DNA from: a bacterium BMS3Bbin08 | GTDB taxonomy: Bacteria > Nitrospirota > Thermodesulfovibrionia > UBA6902 > BMS3Bbin08 | DNA length: 64,000 nt | Assembly (NCBI GenBank): GCA_002897775.1 | Contig: BDTR01000042.1 | Span: forward strand, 61,280-125,279 | Reading direction: 5' to 3' | Shown: positions 24,234 through 30,461 of the stretch, one piece after another | Layout of the letters: each line of letters opens with the position of its first letter | How positions within the stretch are numbered: the first letter of the stretch is position 1 | The notes under the pieces: generated by a model | What the model saw: only the letters and a program-made list of their open reading frames with translations | The model's database searches: none | Told to the model about the DNA's origin: nothing | Position numbers and translations under genes: made by a program

Positions 24234-24393
24234 TCGGAATGGTGAGTTTACCCGCCTATCAGTGTGGCGGGCCTGCCGTATTTTAATGGTGAGCCTGGAT
24301 GCTACTGAAGCATAGTCGAACCGGAATGATGAGCTTGTCGAACCACCCCTCATACCCCTCAACCTCCTACCAAATCTACAAAAACAGCCCCAA

Positions 24394-24416
24394 CTATGGA
24401 AGTCCGACTTCCATAG
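24394..24416. repeat. Palindrome CTATGGAAGTCCGACTTCCATAG in 550-bp noncoding region
   Basis: Perfect 23-bp palindrome; larger relative at 24575-24615 (TATGAATAATTATGGAAGTCCGACTTCTATAATTATTCATA). Confidence 0.7.
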
Positions 24417-24732
24417 TTTTCCCCCGATATTACTCCTAACTATTTGTTTTATAAATAAATTTTGAGATTAAGAGTTGTAAACTCCTCCTATCCAGAAGGC
24501 TCGCAAAATAGCGTAACAGTGAATAATCATTCGACAACTCATTGAAAATAAAGAATAATATCTCCATTACCCAACTATGAATAATTATGGAAGTCCGACT
24601 TCTATAATTATTCATACGGATAAATCTTCAAACCACGCCTAGGGCGGATGAACTTCACTTAACCCTCACTCTACTCAAAACTCCACCCCAAACTCCTTAC
24701 CAAAACGACAAAAATGTTATAATCTACTTTTT

Positions 24733-25734: not shown

Positions 25735-26055
25735 TTACTGATCAACATCATCTTTTTTTAACTGCTCCAGATAATCCTCCCATTCGATCGGAAGAAGGTT
25801 TTTTTTCCTGTTGTTGCACTCCTTGCAGGAAGGCACGACATTGTTCTTTGTTGACCTGCCTCCCCTTATAAGCGGCACAACATGGTCCATGGTCAGGTCC
25901 CTGGGCAGTACTTCCCTTTTGCAGTAATAACACTTTCCTTTGGCGCGTTTCTGCTTCCACCACTGCGTTTTCCTGAGGTCCCGCGCCCTGTTCTTTTCCC
26001 TGCTGATCTGCTGATCATCAACAGCCGGCACAAATCGATCCATTCTCTTCCTCAT
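25735..26055 (-). CDS. Stand-alone HNH endonuclease
   Basis: CYYCKREV...DHVVPLIRGG...NNVVPSCKECNNRK = classic HNH with two CxxC pairs. Confidence 0.75.
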   Translation of the reverse strand: MRKRMDRFVPAVDDQQISREKNRARDLRKTQWWKQKRAKGKCYYCKREVLPRDLTMDHVVPLIRGGRSTKNNVVPSCKECNNRKKNLLPIEWEDYLEQLKKDDVDQ

Positions 26056-26078
26056 AGCAGATATATATTACTCCTCCC

Positions 26079-26109
26079 CCATCTATCGAGGTTGAACCTC
26101 GATAGATGG
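26079..26109. repeat. REP palindrome copy 1 (CATCTATCGAGGTTGAACCTCGATAGATG)
   Basis: Near-perfect 29-31 bp palindrome with TTGAA centre, immediately 3' of the RAYT gene. Confidence 0.85.
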
Positions 26110-26112
26110 GCC

Positions 26113-26853
26113 TTAATCAATAACCACATCCTGCATCAGCTCTTTATTCTGACTAAAAAACCTTTCTTTTAAAATACTTACAGCATCTTTCTTGTATTGC
26201 TTCTCTCCAGCAAACATATCAAGGAGATACTCCCTGTGGGTCACTGAAGGAAAATTAGCCTTTCCGATATAATCAGGAAAGCTGCTCCACCGATAGTCCT
26301 CCAAAGACTTTATTTTCCCCCGCCAATCTATCGAGGTTGAACCTCGATAGATGAGCTCCAGGGGGTTGAGATGGATATAATGGGGCAGATACTCAAAATG
26401 CTCCTGACTGATTATTAGTACCCCTTTAAATCTTCCCTGAAAAAGCCCGCCAACCCGCTTATATTTCTGATTGAAATACATGGTGTAACCAGTTCCTAGT
26501 TTCTGCATAAATCTTACAATCCCGTCTCTTGCCTTTTGTCTGATCAGCAAATGGAAATGGTTCGGCATAAGTGTAAAAACCAGGATTTCTACTAAGCGCT
26601 TCCTCGGCGGTCTTTCCTTTTTCAGAGCGCGGGTCGCGCGGAACTCAACATTCATACTGCGAGGATTAAAAAAATATCCGAAATTAGTAACAGGATTTTC
26701 ATCATTAAACTCATACAGGTTTTGTATAAATCGAAAATAATCATCGTCATCCATGAAAATCTTTCTTTTTTCAACTCCCCTGTTAAAGAGATGATAGACG
26801 TAATCATTTACAAATTGAGGTTTTCGCATTGCTTTAAATCTTACCACAGTCAT
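26113..26853 (-). CDS. IS200-like Y1 (HUH) transposase of the REP-associated tyrosine transposase (RAYT) type
   Basis: HUH motif MPNHFHLLI; catalytic Tyr region GTGYTMYFNQKYKRVGGLFQGRFK; flanked by palindromic REPs; start codon lies inside a REP. Confidence 0.8.
   Translation of the reverse strand: MTVVRFKAMRKPQFVNDYVYHLFNRGVEKRKIFMDDDDYFRFIQNLYEFNDENPVTNFGYFFNPRSMNVEFRATRALKKERPPRKRLVEILVFTLMPNHFHLLIRQKARDGIVRFMQKLGTGYTMYFNQKYKRVGGLFQGRFKGVLIISQEHFEYLPHYIHLNPLELIYRGSTSIDWRGKIKSLEDYRWSSFPDYIGKANFPSVTHREYLLDMFAGEKQYKKDAVSILKERFFSQNKELMQDVVID
26325..26353. repeat. REP palindrome copy 2, located in-frame inside the RAYT coding sequence
   Basis: Same palindrome (TTGAA centre) encodes LIYRGSTSIDWR within the transposase ORF. 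Confidence 0.8.
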
Positions 26854-26880
26854 CTATCGAGGTTCAACCTCGATAGATGG
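26851..26880. repeat. REP palindrome copy 3 (inverted centre TTCAA) overlapping RAYT start codon
   Basis: CATCTATCGAGGTTCAACCTCGATAGATGG; opposite orientation to copies 1-2. Confidence 0.85.
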
Positions 26881-26955
26881 ACCCGCCTTCCTCAATTATA
26901 TGTTCGGTTTTTTTGAGCGGAAATGTTAAAATTATGAACCAATCAAAGGAAAGGC

Positions 26956-27434: not shown

Positions 27435-28094
27435 TTAATCCGGCCATATCTGGGATCGGGTATAATCAACGGCTATTTCCGATTTCCCCTCAACGAGAAA
27501 ACCCACTCTCTTGCCAAAAAGGGATATATCCGAAACTCCATCGACATAATAATTGTTTATGTAAAAACGTATCTTACTGCCCAGTTTTTCCATCTTAAGA
27601 GTATTAAAGGAATCTTTCTGGAAAACCATTCTCCTTATCTTTCCGCCGGACAGCTCCTCTGAAATACCCTTTTGATACTTCTTAATCGAATAGGTCTCAT
27701 CTCCTATGATCTGAAACACATAACTATTGCTGGCATCACTGGCGCCCATCACAAATCCATAAGAGTGTTTACCTGAAGCCTTTACTGTTTTGATAGAAGT
27801 CTCTATTACGAACTCTCTGCCAAGTGGGAAATCCTGATAATACAGTATGAAGAGTTCACCTACCTCGCTTTTGTTCTCGATATAATACTTCCCGTTTTCT
27901 ATTCGCGCAGAAGCCATGGTTGTATTGAATATTTCCCAGTTATTGGCATTATTATCGAATTGTTCTTCGGTGCGCATGAACTTTTCTTCCTGAGGTCCGG
28001 AAGCTGCTTTTTCACTTGGAGATTCCGCATAAACTAATTGAATGTTTGAAACAAAAGTCGCAATCGCTAATAGAATAATAAATATATTTTTCAT
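27435..28094 (-). CDS. Secreted beta-rich domain protein, paralog of the C-terminal domain of the downstream PilZ/J-domain protein
   Basis: Signal peptide MKNIFIILLAIATFVSNIQLVYA; about 190-aa domain about 65% identical to residues about 540-734 of ORF 28257-30461; DNA-level similarity too. Confidence 0.5.
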   Translation of the reverse strand: MKNIFIILLAIATFVSNIQLVYAESPSEKAASGPQEEKFMRTEEQFDNNANNWEIFNTTMASARIENGKYYIENKSEVGELFILYYQDFPLGREFVIETSIKTVKASGKHSYGFVMGASDASNSYVFQIIGDETYSIKKYQKGISEELSGGKIRRMVFQKDSFNTLKMEKLGSKIRFYINNYYVDGVSDISLFGKRVGFLVEGKSEIAVDYTRSQIWPD

Positions 28095-28256
28095 AGCTGC
28101 TCCTTTCAGTACCAAAAAACTCTTAATTTCCCGAATACCATATTCGTCCAAATTCTATCTCAGGCATTCATGCCATGGGGTCAGAATGTCAGGACTTAAC
28201 CCAAATGTCAATAGTCAAGCCTGCCTACCGGCAGGCAGGTCTGACCCTGTTTTGTT

Positions 28257-30461
28257 CTATTTAGACCACATTTGCGTACGGGTATAATCAACAGCTACTT
28301 CCGATTTCCCCTCAACGATAAAACCCATTCTTTTGCCAAGAGGGGATAAATCCGAAACTTCACCGAGATAATTATCGTTTAAGTAAAAGCGCATCGTAGT
28401 ACCCTGTTTTTCCAACTTAAGAGTATTGAAGGAATTTTTCTGGAAAACCATGTCCTTTATCTTTCCGCTGGCCAGTTCCTGTGGAACGCCTTTGTAATAC
28501 CTCTTGATAAAATATAACCCATTTGAGCTGATCTGAAACGTATAATTATTGCCGGCATCTTTAGCGCCCATCACATATCCATAAGAGTGGTTGCCAGAAG
28601 CCCTCACTGTTTTCATAGCAACCTCTACTATGAACTTCCTGTCAAGAGGAAAATCATAAGCATTCAGCGTGACGTATTTGCCTCTCTCGCTTTTGTTCTC
28701 GATATAATACTTCCCGTTTTCTATCCGTGCAGAAGCCATGGTTGTATTGAATGTCTCCCAAGTCTTATCCTCATTATTATCGAATTGAGTCTTATATAGC
28801 ATGAACATTTCGCTCGGAGACTTGGAAGTTGGTTTTTCAGGTTTAAGGCTAGCGAGAAGTTCTTTAGCAGCCTCTTCCTCGGCAAGCTTTGCAGCCTTTT
28901 TCCTGGCAGCCTCTTCCTCGGCAAGCTTTGCAGCCTTTTCTTTGGCAGCCTCTTCCTCAGCAAGCTTTGCAGCCTTTTCTTTAGCAGCCTCTTCCTCGGC
29001 AAGCTTTGCAGCCTTTTCTTTGGCAGCCTCTTCCTCGGCAAGCTTTGCAGCCTTTTCTTTGGCAGCCTCTTCCTCGGCAAGCTTTGCAGCCTTTTCTTTG
29101 GCAGCCTCTTCTATCTCAACAGCCTCAGGTAAAAGTGTCCTGTCATATTCAGCCTTCCTGCCCGGATCAGACAGGTGTTCATGCGCCTCTGTAATATATG
29201 AGAATATTGCGGTCAGTTTCCCCTTCAGGTCGTCCTGGTCGTCAGACGGCAGGGCAAAGTGCCTGTCCGGGTGGAACTCCTTTGATTTGCTGTAGTATGC
29301 CTTGCTGATCTCTTCAGCAGACGCGTTTTTTTCAGTGCCGAGTATACCGTAATATCCTATGGACCACAGCTTTTTAAGTATGTCTTCCACTTTATTCAGG
29401 AACTCAGGCGTGATCTCTTCAGCCGGTTCTTTTATGATCTCTTCAACGTCTTCGATCTTGAGCTCCGCAGGCGCTCTTTCTTCTTTCCTGACAGCGATCA
29501 TCCCTATGCTGAGAAGGGCGCAGATGGTTTTGAGGGTATCGGGTTCAGGCAAAAGTGAAAGCGACAACACGGTTTTTAATGAACGTTTGCCATCTATACA
29601 GGAAAGGATCGCCTTGTCAGATCCATCAAGTTTGACATCCTGAAAGATGTTCATCGGGCTGGGCGAAAGATCAAGCACTGCCGTCAGAGGCGGGATTACC
29701 TTTTTTATGTGAAGGATATTATTAACGTTTTTGATACCGTTGCATATAATATTTGCGGCACTGATCCTGAGAGTTATCAAATCGTCTGAAGAAAGAGAGC
29801 CTTCATGGAACCTGAACTTGCCGGTTTCCATGGCAAAAAGACTGAGTATGATCTCCTCTATCTGATGCTGTACCGCGACAAAGACCTCTTTTGGTTTTAG
29901 GCATCCGAGCTCTACAAGGACCTTGCCCAGCTTGCTCCCGCTTTCTTCAGATAAACCGCGCGCCTTGTCAAATTCTTCCTGGCTGATCCTTTTTTGCCTT
30001 ACAAGAAGTTCTCCAAACCCATCCTCTTTGTAATTGGACGAGGCAAATATCATGTCCCCGTTCCTTATGAAGACCTCCTTGATTACCGAGCCGCTCGCAA
30101 CCCTGAGAACCCCTGTTTTTGTGCTCCTCTGCAGGCCGATCAGCACATCTGCCAGTGCAAAGCTCTTTAAAGAGCCCTGAAGGCTGTCCAGTCTTTTGAA
30201 CCCCACCCTGAGTTCATCGTCTGTTTTGTTTACCCATGCGACCTCGCCCCTAAACTGTATCTCAGGGTCAAAGACCTTTACATCCGCCTGTGTGCCGACA
30301 GTAAGCTTCGGGGCATTCTCAAAAACCGCGCCAAGCCCGTCCGAATAGTCAAGTACTCTGCCTCTATAGGTCTCTGAGCCTACCTTTACCTCACACTCAG
30401 ACCGGCTTTCATATCTTTTAAAATGTCTTCTGTCCTCATCGCTCATAATTAAATTATACAA
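28257..30461 (-). CDS. Multidomain PilZ - DUF4388 - J-domain (DnaJ) protein with EEAAKEKAAKLAE x7 coiled-coil repeats and C-terminal beta-domain
   Basis: N-terminal PilZ (RRHFKR...DYSDGLG), DUF4388 (SLKSFALADVLIGLQRSTKTGVLRV), J-domain with HPD (YYGILG...EFHPDRH), seven 13-aa repeats, C-terminal jellyroll-like domain. Confidence 0.7.
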   Translation of the reverse strand: MYNLIMSDEDRRHFKRYESRSECEVKVGSETYRGRVLDYSDGLGAVFENAPKLTVGTQADVKVFDPEIQFRGEVAWVNKTDDELRVGFKRLDSLQGSLKSFALADVLIGLQRSTKTGVLRVASGSVIKEVFIRNGDMIFASSNYKEDGFGELLVRQKRISQEEFDKARGLSEESGSKLGKVLVELGCLKPKEVFVAVQHQIEEIILSLFAMETGKFRFHEGSLSSDDLITLRISAANIICNGIKNVNNILHIKKVIPPLTAVLDLSPSPMNIFQDVKLDGSDKAILSCIDGKRSLKTVLSLSLLPEPDTLKTICALLSIGMIAVRKEERAPAELKIEDVEEIIKEPAEEITPEFLNKVEDILKKLWSIGYYGILGTEKNASAEEISKAYYSKSKEFHPDRHFALPSDDQDDLKGKLTAIFSYITEAHEHLSDPGRKAEYDRTLLPEAVEIEEAAKEKAAKLAEEEAAKEKAAKLAEEEAAKEKAAKLAEEEAAKEKAAKLAEEEAAKEKAAKLAEEEAARKKAAKLAEEEAAKELLASLKPEKPTSKSPSEMFMLYKTQFDNNEDKTWETFNTTMASARIENGKYYIENKSERGKYVTLNAYDFPLDRKFIVEVAMKTVRASGNHSYGYVMGAKDAGNNYTFQISSNGLYFIKRYYKGVPQELASGKIKDMVFQKNSFNTLKLEKQGTTMRFYLNDNYLGEVSDLSPLGKRMGFIVEGKSEVAVDYTRTQMWSK
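28858..29112. repeat. Seven near-perfect 39-bp tandem repeats (coding EEAAKEKAAKLAE)
   Basis: GCAGCCTCTTCCTCGGCAAGCTTTGCAGCCTTTTCTTTG repeated head-to-tail on the plus strand. Confidence 0.85.

Follow-up and report, generated by a model that had tools for sequence, protein, structure and literature searches.

In the 64-kb stretch of DNA analyzed in this work, referred to as the window, a gene coding for a Y1 HUH protein is both bracketed and interrupted by copies of a single palindrome; the features of the locus are listed in Table 1. A pattern scan of the window found the 27-nt palindrome ATCTATCGAGGTT[G/C]AACCTCGATAGAT as exact copies at 26081-26107, 26326-26352 and 26852-26878, and no further copies in the rest of the 64 kb: a sequence-only reading of this DNA had described two copies around the gene, a third one in frame within it and none elsewhere in the window, and all of this is borne out. 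No copy is expected by chance, as estimated from 100 shuffles. The central base on the + strand is G, G and C, respectively, and the internal copy is identical to the flanking ones over 27 nt, except for the central base.

When folded as single-stranded DNA, the downstream, internal and upstream hairpins reach energies of -17, -12 and -13.1 kcal/mol, with z-scores of -7.8, -5.0 and -6.3. No known RNA family was recognized, Rfam giving only a chance snoRNA match below threshold. GC content in intervals centred within the unit is 0.39-0.43, barely lower than the values of about 0.40-0.50 found nearby, and a foreign composition of the unit was rejected on the basis of this slight difference.

Table 1. 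Genes and hairpins at the locus (positions in the window)
Feature	Position	Strand	Description
Upstream hairpin (U)	26851..26879	.	+ strand CATCTATCGAGGTT-C-AACCTCGATAGATG; 14-bp stem; 22 nt separate it from the likely start codon
Y1 HUH (IS200/RAYT-like) gene	26113..26829	-	238 aa from M9; Pfam Y1_Tnp
Decayed slot-1 hairpin relic	26638..26658	-	encodes S58-M-N-V-E-F-R64
Internal hairpin, slot 2	26326..26352	-	13-bp stem; in frame, I160-Y-R-G-S-T-S-I-D168
Downstream hairpin (D)	26078..26110	.	+ strand CCCATCTATCGAGGTT-G-AACCTCGATAGATGGG; 16-bp stem; begins 3 nt past the stop codon
Stand-alone HNH nuclease gene	25735..26055	-	Pfam HNH/HNH_5; 102 aa in the annotation of the source MAGs
Sister-family hairpins, core GGAAGTCCGACTTCC	24392-24418 and 24576-24616	.	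solitary; intergenic, neighbouring genes PQ-loop and methyltransferase

The Y1 HUH gene and its surroundings

The IS200-like HUH gene proposed from the sequence is confirmed: ORF 26113-26853 (-) matches Pfam PF01797 Y1_Tnp with 31.8 bits (cut-off 23, E = 1.8e-7) and features the HuH motif N90-H91-F92-H93 (26551-26562) and, within YIHLNP, the catalytic Tyr151 (26377-26379). H91, H93 and Y151 are invariant in the best 120 homologues; further motifs are LFQGRF and a YRWSS tail. The first in-frame ATG of this ORF falls within the foot of the upstream hairpin (GATAGATG). The database protein (P0001, 100% identical, 238 aa) and all homologues begin at M9 (MRKPQF, ATG at 26829), which is most likely the true start, the longer reading frame up to 26853 being probably unused. 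Given this likely start, the hairpin lies entirely before the gene, and the overlap with the start codon, described earlier as the canonical RAYT arrangement, is not maintained.

The AF2 model of the protein (pLDDT 78.6) finds its best fold match in the PDB, at E = 2.2e-5, in 4er8_A, a structure of the E. coli RAYT in complex with a REP hairpin, followed at ranks 2-7 by TnpA proteins of the IS608/ISDra2 type; matches include 2vic_A, 2xm3_A and 2a6o_A. By sequence, the PDB contains no relatives at E <= 1, the matches coming from the fold search instead. The predicted fold is therefore closest to that of the E. coli REP-associated tyrosine transposase (RAYT). Membership in the canonical RAYTs, as originally suggested, is not sustained: NCBIfam NF047646 REP_Tyr_transpos gives 38.3 bits, against a cut-off of 80, and the GT[AG]G tetranucleotide is missing at the hairpin foot. 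Pfam detected no HTH-like distal tail.

The internal hairpin is read as ATC TAT CGA GGT TCA ACC TCG ATA GAT, nine residues past Tyr151, and its position within the 238 residues corrects the earlier placement near the C-terminus. In the AF2 model the peptide forms the loop right after the helix of the catalytic Tyr: the block of residues 161-170 (mean pLDDT 68) is located between helices 156-161 and 169-178, and the internal copy is predicted to occupy a permissive surface loop.

The adjacent HNH gene had also been noticed and is recognized by Pfam. A tblastn search found no HNH protein in 80 other homologous loci, with matches in the source MAG contigs only; a partnership with the Y1 gene was rejected on this count (0 of 80), and the neighbour is incidental, outside the family-wide module.

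The sister-family hairpins lie 1.5-1.7 kb away from the module. Their core is common to many family members (e.g. L004, L021, L043, L070). A second Y1 gene or pseudogene as their source in the window was rejected: the family HMM, run on all six-frame open segments, matched only the known gene, and no Y1 remnant was found near the hairpins at 24392 and 24576.

Hairpins across the family

Homologues were collected in a sample of 83 gene copies, mostly from Patescibacteria, along with Nitrospirota, Nanoarchaeota and others. The source species is absent from the retrieved loci, the best match being 62% identical, and a scan of metagenomes found no locus with a gene copy above 62% identity. At 50% identity (E <= 1e-30) the family comprises 266 clusters, most of them in the streamlined genomes of Patescibacteria and DPANN; its spread is patchy, over Patescibacteria, Nitrospirota, Nanoarchaeota, Omnitrophota and Spirochaetia. 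In IMG/VR, only two distant relatives were detected, and carriage by phages was rejected, the family being essentially absent from viral contigs.

The complete set of upstream, internal and downstream hairpins is found in 57 of the 83 gene copies, and 8 more carry the upstream and downstream ones only, so that both flanks are occupied in 65. Taken singly, the upstream hairpin is found in 78 of 83, where it holds a corresponding place, with usually 8-30 nt between it and the ATG, the downstream one in 67, mostly from -8 to +40 nt of the stop codon, and the internal one in 66. The palindromes are perfect, 13-20 bp long, with what is formally a 1-nt centre.

Hairpins of the same locus evolve in concert, with an identity of 0.90, against 0.56 between loci, and for 52 of 61 internal copies the closest hairpin is a flanking one of the same locus. 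Covariation, with double-sided changes, is seen at each of the 13 stem pairs: 90.8% of the cells are paired, a figure reached by none of 500 shuffles, although this statistic has an ascertainment component, a search for palindromes having been used to identify the hairpins. Conservation is highest in the GA-rich top of the stem and in the loop. Paralogues within one genome or contig (L004/L013, L112) bear different hairpin types, and tnpA_REP paralogues with REP types of their own have been likewise described (PMC6006769).

The feet of the hairpins are diverse (CTAT/ATAG, TTAC/GTAA, TGTT/AACA and others), and the GT[AG]G guide tetranucleotide is not conserved there, either in the window or in the family loci. 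Loose runs of G adjoin some of the feet. The opposite orientation claimed for the outer copies holds in the window, where their central bases differ (G vs C), but does not extend to a rule, as no fixed relation between upstream and downstream centres is found across the family. In the internal copy, read on the sense strand, the central C is forced, because a G would create a TGA stop codon.

Internal copies are confined to two codon-precise slots, with the centre of the hairpin at about +186 nt (slot 1, before the HuH strand, mostly codon phase 0) or at about +463-499 nt (slot 2, just after the Tyr helix, phase 1). In the protein alignment, the columns taken up by each slot are the same across homologues, and both slots map to variable regions modelled by AF2 with lower confidence. 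Besides the intact copy in slot 2, the gene of the window retains in slot 1 a relic that agrees with the consensus at 12 of 23 nt and has kept only 3 of 11 stem pairs; in relatives, the hairpin at this place is intact, of the TATGGAGGTTGAACCTCCATA type, and is translated as the peptide SMEVEPRY. Around the relic, residues 48-50 and 66-70 have pLDDT <50, and the model shows a beta-hairpin at residues 52-63.

Copy numbers of the hairpins are low, and most copies are sited at the gene. The flanks of 80 loci, 371 kb in total, contain about 19 extra copies, and in three relatives no dispersed copies occur within ±10 kb of the gene. The exact 27-mer is present in 24 metagenome stretches, 14 of which contain no Y1 gene, and one copy lies, in frame, inside a P-type ATPase gene (L096). 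Since solitary 27-mers are found in other contigs away from Y1 genes, the palindrome behaves, in some genomes, like a mobile element of the REP type. In the genome of the window it is no more than a candidate REP, all three copies in 64 kb being sited at the gene.

Relation to known systems

The closest parallel is offered by REPtrons (RAYT/TnpA_REP, as E. coli YafM, 4ER8), which also rely on a Y1 HUH enzyme of class 2 (Y---NP). As in the present family, their gene is bracketed by cognate palindromes of a type specific to each paralogue, gene copy number is low and solitary palindromes are found elsewhere (PMC6006769). In contrast, the elements described here lack the GT[AG]G guide tetranucleotide, are perfect palindromes, while REPs are imperfect or bulged, and occur in low numbers, mostly at the gene only. 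The protein also differs from RAYTs of the E. coli type in its length (238 vs 165 aa), in the replacement of the W motif by FQ and in the YRWSS tail.

REPs placed in frame within tnpA_REP genes have been reported for subclass 2.4 (Bertels group 4), where they predominate, by Quentin, Siguier, Chandler and Fichant (2018, PMC6006769), and the feature has been called unique to this subclass, whose hosts are Cyanobacteria and Bacteroidetes (PMC6006769). The similarity is close: in addition to flanking REPs, a cognate REP is found in the transposase gene, with the frame intact and in a peripheral loop (PMC6006769). The protein of the window, however, is 238 aa long, with FQ in place of WQ and YIHLNP in place of YIxNNP; the slots are located before HuH (about aa 58-64) and after the Tyr (aa 160-168); and hosts are mainly Patescibacteria, DPANN and Nitrospirota.

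Alignment of the protein to TnpA-REP groups, suggested earlier, was followed by motif: class 2 is confirmed by Y---NP, subclass 2.4 motifs are not found, and NH[YF]H, FQ, Y[IV]HLNP, the SS proximal tail and a median length of 238 aa point to subclass 2.1 (Bertels RAYT group 1; TIRYTs), an assignment based only on the comparison of motifs with Table 1 of PMC6006769. No REP-like sequences have been found near subclass 2.1 genes (Quentin et al., PMC6006769), and TIRYTs have, on either side, terminal inverted repeats bearing a GGGGWSAS motif (Di Nocera et al. 2013, PMC3733652). Unlike these, the present genes are flanked and interrupted by self-complementary hairpins, three times over. A subclass reported to lack REPs seems to have hairpins of the REP kind in uncultured lineages of both bacteria and archaea.

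Short palindromic repeats found in frame within genes, and tolerated in loops, are also known from the Rickettsia RPEs and the intragenic GTAG/CGTC REPs (PMC3733652); the copy in the P-type ATPase is of this kind. These repeats are scattered in unrelated host genes, whereas here the host gene codes for the presumed mobilizing enzyme and the slot is conserved throughout the family. Overall, the module is REPtron-like, and the oddity of a REP within its own transposase gene, already known, is extended to a new subfamily.

The family is an unusually clean natural experiment on the coevolution of RAYT-type enzymes with their palindromes, and on the role of domesticated transposases: each of hundreds of diverged lineages carries three matched, lineage-specific perfect hairpins, one of which is apparently under coding and pairing constraint together. 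Covariation of protein and hairpin could be mined for the recognition code of Y1 enzymes, which find use as HUH tags and as tools for ssDNA, and the fixed internal slot makes the function of a REP in its own transposase gene directly testable.

A probable REPtron-like module and alternative explanations

Positions 26078-26879, about 0.8 kb, make up, in our opinion, what is probably a compact module of the REPtron type, in which a RAYT-like, class-2 Y1 HUH ssDNA endonuclease/transposase is delimited by copies of its cognate palindrome and carries a further one in frame, and would act on these hairpins. By analogy with the TnpA of IS608/ISDra2 and the TnpA_REP of E. coli, the palindromes would extrude as hairpins in single-stranded DNA, e.g. 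in the lagging-strand template, and would be recognized by the enzyme; Tyr151 would cleave at the foot of the hairpin, and the enzyme could rejoin the strands. The internal copy would be of ancient origin and, throughout the family, would occupy one of two fixed slots, in an orientation set by the reading frame. It may be kept nearly identical to the flanks either by the enzyme, through repeated swapping or re-insertion of hairpins at the same sites, or by selection matching all three to the specificity of the enzyme. Hairpins would be mostly cis-acting and low-copy, with an occasional spread as solitary REP-like units, at times in frame into other genes.

We suggest, only tentatively, that the in-frame hairpin, instead of being a tolerated passenger, may be maintained by selection as the third element of a three-hairpin architecture. 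If so, keeping its own substrate within the coding sequence would physically couple the specificity of the enzyme to its gene. It might also provide a self-limiting feedback, by binding or nicking of the gene or by stalling of the mRNA, and programmed excision of the upstream-internal or internal-downstream sub-elements might seed hairpin-pair units similar to REPINs. Enzyme-mediated swapping of hairpin "cassettes" at fixed sites would then drive concerted evolution, and would explain how a palindrome could overwrite a stretch of the P-type ATPase gene of equal length and compatible motif.

Alternatively, the locus could be an autonomous IS200-like insertion sequence, a 0.8-kb unit moving as a whole by single-strand peel-and-paste, with the outer hairpins as left and right ends and the internal one as an incidental feature. 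The resemblance to TnpA of the IS200/IS605 group (IS608, ISDra2) includes the HUH/Y1 fold, the hairpins at both ends of a single-gene unit of about 0.7-0.8 kb and the presumed single-strand mechanism. The compactness of the unit, with hairpins hugging start and stop, fits this explanation, as do the patchy distribution across the five groups given above, an identical tandem duplicate in one locus (L070) and a 784-bp unit in another (L108), which lies on the opposite strand between the prepilin peptidase and pilin genes of a type IV pilus operon and looks inserted. We nevertheless consider it unlikely. Members of the IS200/IS605 group (subclass 1.1) have Y---Q, about 150 aa, distinct, imperfect and asymmetric end hairpins and many near-identical copies, none of which is found here: the protein has the class-2, RAYT-like Y---NP and 238 aa, the same perfect palindrome is present at both ends, the window contains a single copy, and paralogues of the same genome are divergent, with different hairpins. 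Solitary hairpins without the gene, and the near absence of the family from viral contigs, also argue against an insertion sequence.

Another explanation is that the hairpins control expression of the gene and are unrelated to the catalytic substrate: the upstream one would act as an operator or by promoter occlusion, the internal one as a ribosome or RNase III obstacle within the mRNA, and the downstream one as a terminator or stabilizer. IS200 represses its own transposase with stem-loops, and such a role would agree with the stereotyped distances of the outer hairpins from the ATG (8-30 nt) and from the stop codon (0-30 nt), and with an extended -10-like box (TGnTAnnnT), which 17 of 65 loci have between upstream hairpin and ATG, the window among them (TGGTAAGAT). 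The spacers scanned for these boxes are AT-rich, and only 17 of the 65 contain one. No T-tract follows the downstream hairpin, for which the terminator scan made no call; scans of the hairpins for sigma-70 promoters and intrinsic terminators did not rise above shuffled expectation, and both were rejected. Mismatches on the sense strand are of the G·T type in 34 cases and of the A·C type in 27: no RNA-strand-specific selection is seen, and this asymmetry was set aside as uninformative. The same palindromes are, moreover, found solitary, far from Y1 genes, and inside an unrelated gene, and paralogue-specific hairpin types would be unexplained, unless the protein reads the hairpin; should this be the case, control of expression merges with the REPtron-like module as autoregulation. 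As a separate explanation it is, in our view, improbable.

Recent insertion of a REP into the gene of its own transposase, proposed by the sequence-only reading in terms of a young REP/RAYT pair, could account for the perfect 13-bp stem and for its identity to the flanks over 27 nt, central base excepted. It appears very improbable. Slot 2 is shared, in the same codon phase, by homologues of other phyla at 45-73% identity; comparison with close homologues, run as that reading had advised, shows no clean indel; and the decayed hairpin in slot 1 of the same gene shows a long residence of hairpins. The embedded copy is neither a young insertion nor simply part of the protein, the latter being an outcome that the same reading had named as contrary to its own proposal.

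A further possibility, that conservation of the peptide IYRGSTSID gave rise to the internal palindrome, with no relation to the copies on either side, can be practically dismissed: although Y-[RG]-G-S-T-S-I-D is nearly invariant in the best 120 homologues, other members keep the slot palindrome with quite different peptides (YRGSTSI, YGSSTPI, PPTVRSSTSNSWG and others are found in the slot), and neither the identity to non-coding flanks nor the compensatory codon pairs (CGA/TCG, GGA/TCC, GGG/CCC, AGT/ACT) would be explained. Between the gene of the window and its homologue in L010, the internal hairpin is identical at 27 of 27 nt, including 9 of 9 third positions, beyond what the peptide constrains, while the rest of the gene shares 62% of nucleotides and 55% of third positions. 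As judged from these comparisons, it is the palindrome, together with its match to the copies on either side, that is conserved, while the peptide varies.

Palindromes at the Y1 transposase gene

As the sequence-only reading had proposed, copies of one palindrome stand before, inside and after the Y1 gene of the window: the pattern ATCTATCGAGGTTSAACCTCGATAGAT has three exact matches in the 64 kb, where shuffles expect none, and within the window the palindrome is confined to this gene. All three hairpins fold as single-stranded DNA far better than shuffles. The internal copy is indeed translated in-frame, its codons ATC TAT CGA GGT TCA ACC TCG ATA GAT reading IYRGSTSID, but it occupies residues 160-168 of 238, immediately after the catalytic YIHLNP, and not the vicinity of the C-terminus, as first thought. 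The ATG which the upstream palindrome was said to overlap sits in the hairpin foot (GATAGATG); the protein most likely starts 22 nt further on, at MRKPQF, where all homologues also begin, as does the database entry of 238 aa, P0001, from Nitrospirae MAGs.

Features of the Y1 unit, of its surroundings and of the compared loci
Feature	Locus	Position	Strand	Details
Y1 gene	window	26113-26853	-	matches Pfam Y1_Tnp
Upstream hairpin	window	26851-26879		exact match 26852-26878; extended stem 14 bp; -13.1 kcal/mol (ssDNA)
Internal hairpin	window	26326-26352		exact match over the same interval; stem 13 bp; -12 kcal/mol (ssDNA)
Downstream hairpin	window	26078-26110		exact match 26081-26107; extended stem 16 bp; -17 kcal/mol (ssDNA)
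Slot 1	family	centre ~186 nt from ATG		mostly codon phase 0; variable loop before HuH strand
Slot 2	family	centre ~463-499 nt from ATG		phase 1; right after Tyr helix; used by window gene
Slot 1 relic	window	26638-26658		S58-MNVEF-R64
Hairpin-to-ATG spacer	window	26830-26850		short, AT-rich
HNH nuclease	window	25735-26055	-	stand-alone, 102-106 aa; starts just past downstream hairpin
Sister hairpins	window	24392-24418; 24576-24616		184 nt apart
Adjacent ORFs	window	27435-28151; 28257-30461	-; -	similar C-terminal domain
Complete unit	L108	9951-10734		784 bp
Tandem units	L070	1284-2990		identical
Paralogues	L112	10001-13540		~2 kb apart
Palindrome in ATPase gene	L096	3185-3211		27 nt, in-frame
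Doubled hairpins	L014	1132-1164; 1849-1883		inverted pairs
Doubled hairpins	L110	6080-6122		inverted pair

An extended -10-like box, TGnTAnnnT (TGGTAAGAT in the window), lies in the spacer between upstream hairpin and ATG in 17 of 65 loci, the window included; a scan for promoter or terminator signals gave nothing beyond chance. Judging from the sequence, transcription may start leaderless or close to the hairpin, because many of these spacers leave too little room for a Shine-Dalgarno sequence.

The hairpins of a locus evolve in concert and their stems covary

Eighty homologous loci from species-representative genomes, mostly Patescibacteria, along with Nitrospirota, Nanoarchaeota, Omnitrophota and Spirochaetia, were scanned for palindromes. 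A matching trio accompanies 57 of their 83 gene copies, upstream and downstream hairpins only are found in 8 further copies, and an internal hairpin is present in 66. From the end of the upstream hairpin to the ATG there are usually 8-30 nt, the start of the downstream one lies mostly at -8 to +40 nt relative to the stop, and internal hairpins are restricted to two codon-precise slots, both intact in five genes. Slot 1 of the window gene is a decayed relic, with 3 of 11 stem pairs remaining; its equivalent in relatives, SMEVEPRY, is the translated intact TATGGAGGTTGAACCTCCATA hairpin.

The peptide LIY[RG]GSTSIDW is kept across alignments of 20, and then 120, homologues at 58-73% protein identity, which, taken alone, would make the internal copy simply a part of the protein; the DNA contradicts this. 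Hairpins diverge strongly among loci (e.g. TGTTTGGAGATCGGGTCTCCAAACA, TCTATTGATTTCCGAAATCAATAGA, AAGCAGGTTCAACCTGCTT, ATATATCGTAACCGGGTTACGATATAT, TTAACGAGAAATGTTCTCGTTAA), mean identity over 25 nt being 0.90-0.91 within loci versus 0.56 between them, and the internal copy finds its best match in a flank of its own locus in 52 out of 61 cases. In 66 distinct internal hairpins, aligned by their centres, 13 out of 13 stem pairs feature double-sided changes; 90.8% of cells are paired, a figure not approached by shuffles or slid registers, and inflated since the hairpins were chosen as palindromes, although their homologous positions played no part in that choice. Slot peptides vary through complementary codon pairs (YRGSTSI, YGSSTPI, HYRGSTSIME, PPTVRSSTSNSWG, SGGSTSGD). 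Between the window gene and its homologue in locus L010, the nine hairpin codons are identical at 27 of 27 nt, while the remaining gene is 62% identical, with 55% third-position identity at identical residues. It is the palindrome, together with its likeness to the flanking copies, that has been conserved: within-locus identity, covarying stems, varied peptides and the identity to L010 rule out both a conserved peptide and a young insertion, and contradict the young REP/RAYT pair previously suggested.

Of 21 slot-2 hairpins, 18 have C as their central base, since a G there would give GGT TGA ACC, with a stop codon. This constraint explains the TTCAA/TTGAA difference, correctly noticed in the first reading; the opposite orientations deduced from it do not correspond to any rule for upstream and downstream hairpins across the family. 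The hairpins have no Rfam family, and no sense-strand bias was found in G·T versus A·C mismatches.

Solitary copies and possible movement of the unit

No hairpin copies away from the gene were found in three relatives with 10-kb flanks, and about 19 extra copies in the 371 kb flanking the 80 loci. Among 241 million metagenome records, the exact 27-mer occurs in 24 stretches, 10 at Y1 genes and 14 on contigs without one, the solitary copies being mostly intergenic. One exact copy lies in-frame within a P-type ATPase gene of the metagenome contig Ga0137829_10348924 (L096, GKIYRGSTSIDESMLTGES; …PVDGKIYRGSTSIDESMLTGES…), the Pfam E1-E2_ATPase match being uninterrupted. The residues it encodes seem to agree with GxSxVDES, the motif usual in this part of the protein; if so, an equal-length native segment was replaced by the element, rather than a simple insertion having occurred. 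Given the solitary copies and their scarcity away from the gene, the REP-like palindrome can exist and spread alone, yet is low-copy and mostly found in cis.

Two strong solitary hairpins of a sister family, AACTATGGAAGTCCGACTTCCATAGTT and a version with a 19-bp stem, lie in a 560-nt intergenic region of the window; many other members of the Y1 family use their GAAGTCSGACTTC core. Neither this region nor the rest of the window yielded a further Y1 gene or a remnant of one; the two hairpins may point to a second paralogue elsewhere in the genome, or be orphan REPs. In L014, L037, L045 and L110 the flanking hairpins are doubled as inverted pairs, forming a larger palindrome which resembles REPIN/BIME dimers. 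In L034, L039, L042, L044 and L048, partial repeats of one arm ('taagcctcgtaaagttta', 'caacctcacacataattac') come directly 3' of the downstream hairpin, perhaps left behind by repeated insertion or by slippage.

There are signs that the whole hairpin-gene-hairpin unit can move, as a mobile IS. In the 585-kb JGI contig Ga0315285_10000001 (L108), a complete unit with a slot-2 hairpin, which separates the prepilin peptidase and pilin genes of a type IV pilus operon and runs on the opposite strand, looks like a whole-unit insertion, and locus L070 holds the whole unit as an identical tandem duplicate. Against an IS stand the divergence of paralogues that share a genome and differ in hairpin type (L004/L013, L112), and the near-complete absence of the Y1 family from viral contigs. 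Two divergent paralogues are found both in L045, where they are adjacent, and in L112, where the second has its own hairpin type. The window unit has no marked compositional anomaly.

Proposed mechanism, known REPs and neighbouring genes

A sequence search of PDB found no relative of the window protein. Its AlphaFold2 model (pLDDT 78.6, confidence being lower around both slots) best matches 4er8_A, the E. coli REP-associated tyrosine transposase with bound REP hairpin (E = 2.2e-5), followed by IS608 and ISDra2 TnpA; NCBIfam REP_Tyr_transpos scores 38 bits, below its cut-off of 80. The motifs NHFH, FQ and YIHLNP, the YRWSS tail and the 238-aa length agree with those of subclass 2.1 in Quentin et al. 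2018 (PMC6006769), coincident with Bertels RAYT group 1 and TIRYTs. The close family includes 266 clusters at 50% identity (E ≤ 1e-30).

IS608/ISDra2 TnpA and E. coli TnpA_REP (PMC8266576) offer an analogy for the mechanism: most likely the enzyme recognises and cleaves the hairpins in single-stranded DNA. It would cleave via Tyr151 and then rejoin the strands, the internal copy being presumably housed in a permissive loop. The match of internal and flanking copies might derive from repeated enzyme-mediated excision and re-insertion at the same sites ('cassette swapping'), or from selection acting on the three hairpins alike. It seems rather unlikely that selection maintains the internal hairpin for a function of its own, be it autoregulation or the seeding of sub-elements.

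Cognate REPs in-frame within tnpA_REP genes were already reported by Quentin, Siguier, Chandler and Fichant in 2018 (PMC6006769), who saw none in the neighbourhood of subclass 2.1 genes, and intragenic in-frame REPs and RPEs are known in other genes (PMC3733652); the window case is therefore a variant of a known phenomenon. It differs from the former in subclass, slots and hosts, and in its perfect palindromes, devoid of GTAG. A REP within its own transposase gene being already known, what is added here is an unusually clear family-wide, codon-precise pattern.

The adjacent nuclease proved to be HNH, as initially noted, its weak best NCBIfam matches being the HNH domains of Cas9d and IscB; a linkage to Y1 was rejected, adjacency being limited to the source MAGs and seen in none of the 80 homologous loci. 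Two further ORFs, adjacent to each other, closely resemble one another over a C-terminal domain of ~170 aa (…ASARIENGKYYIENKSE…AVDYTR[ST]Q[IM]W…), and the larger one also contains six tandem AEEEAAKEKAAKL repeats.
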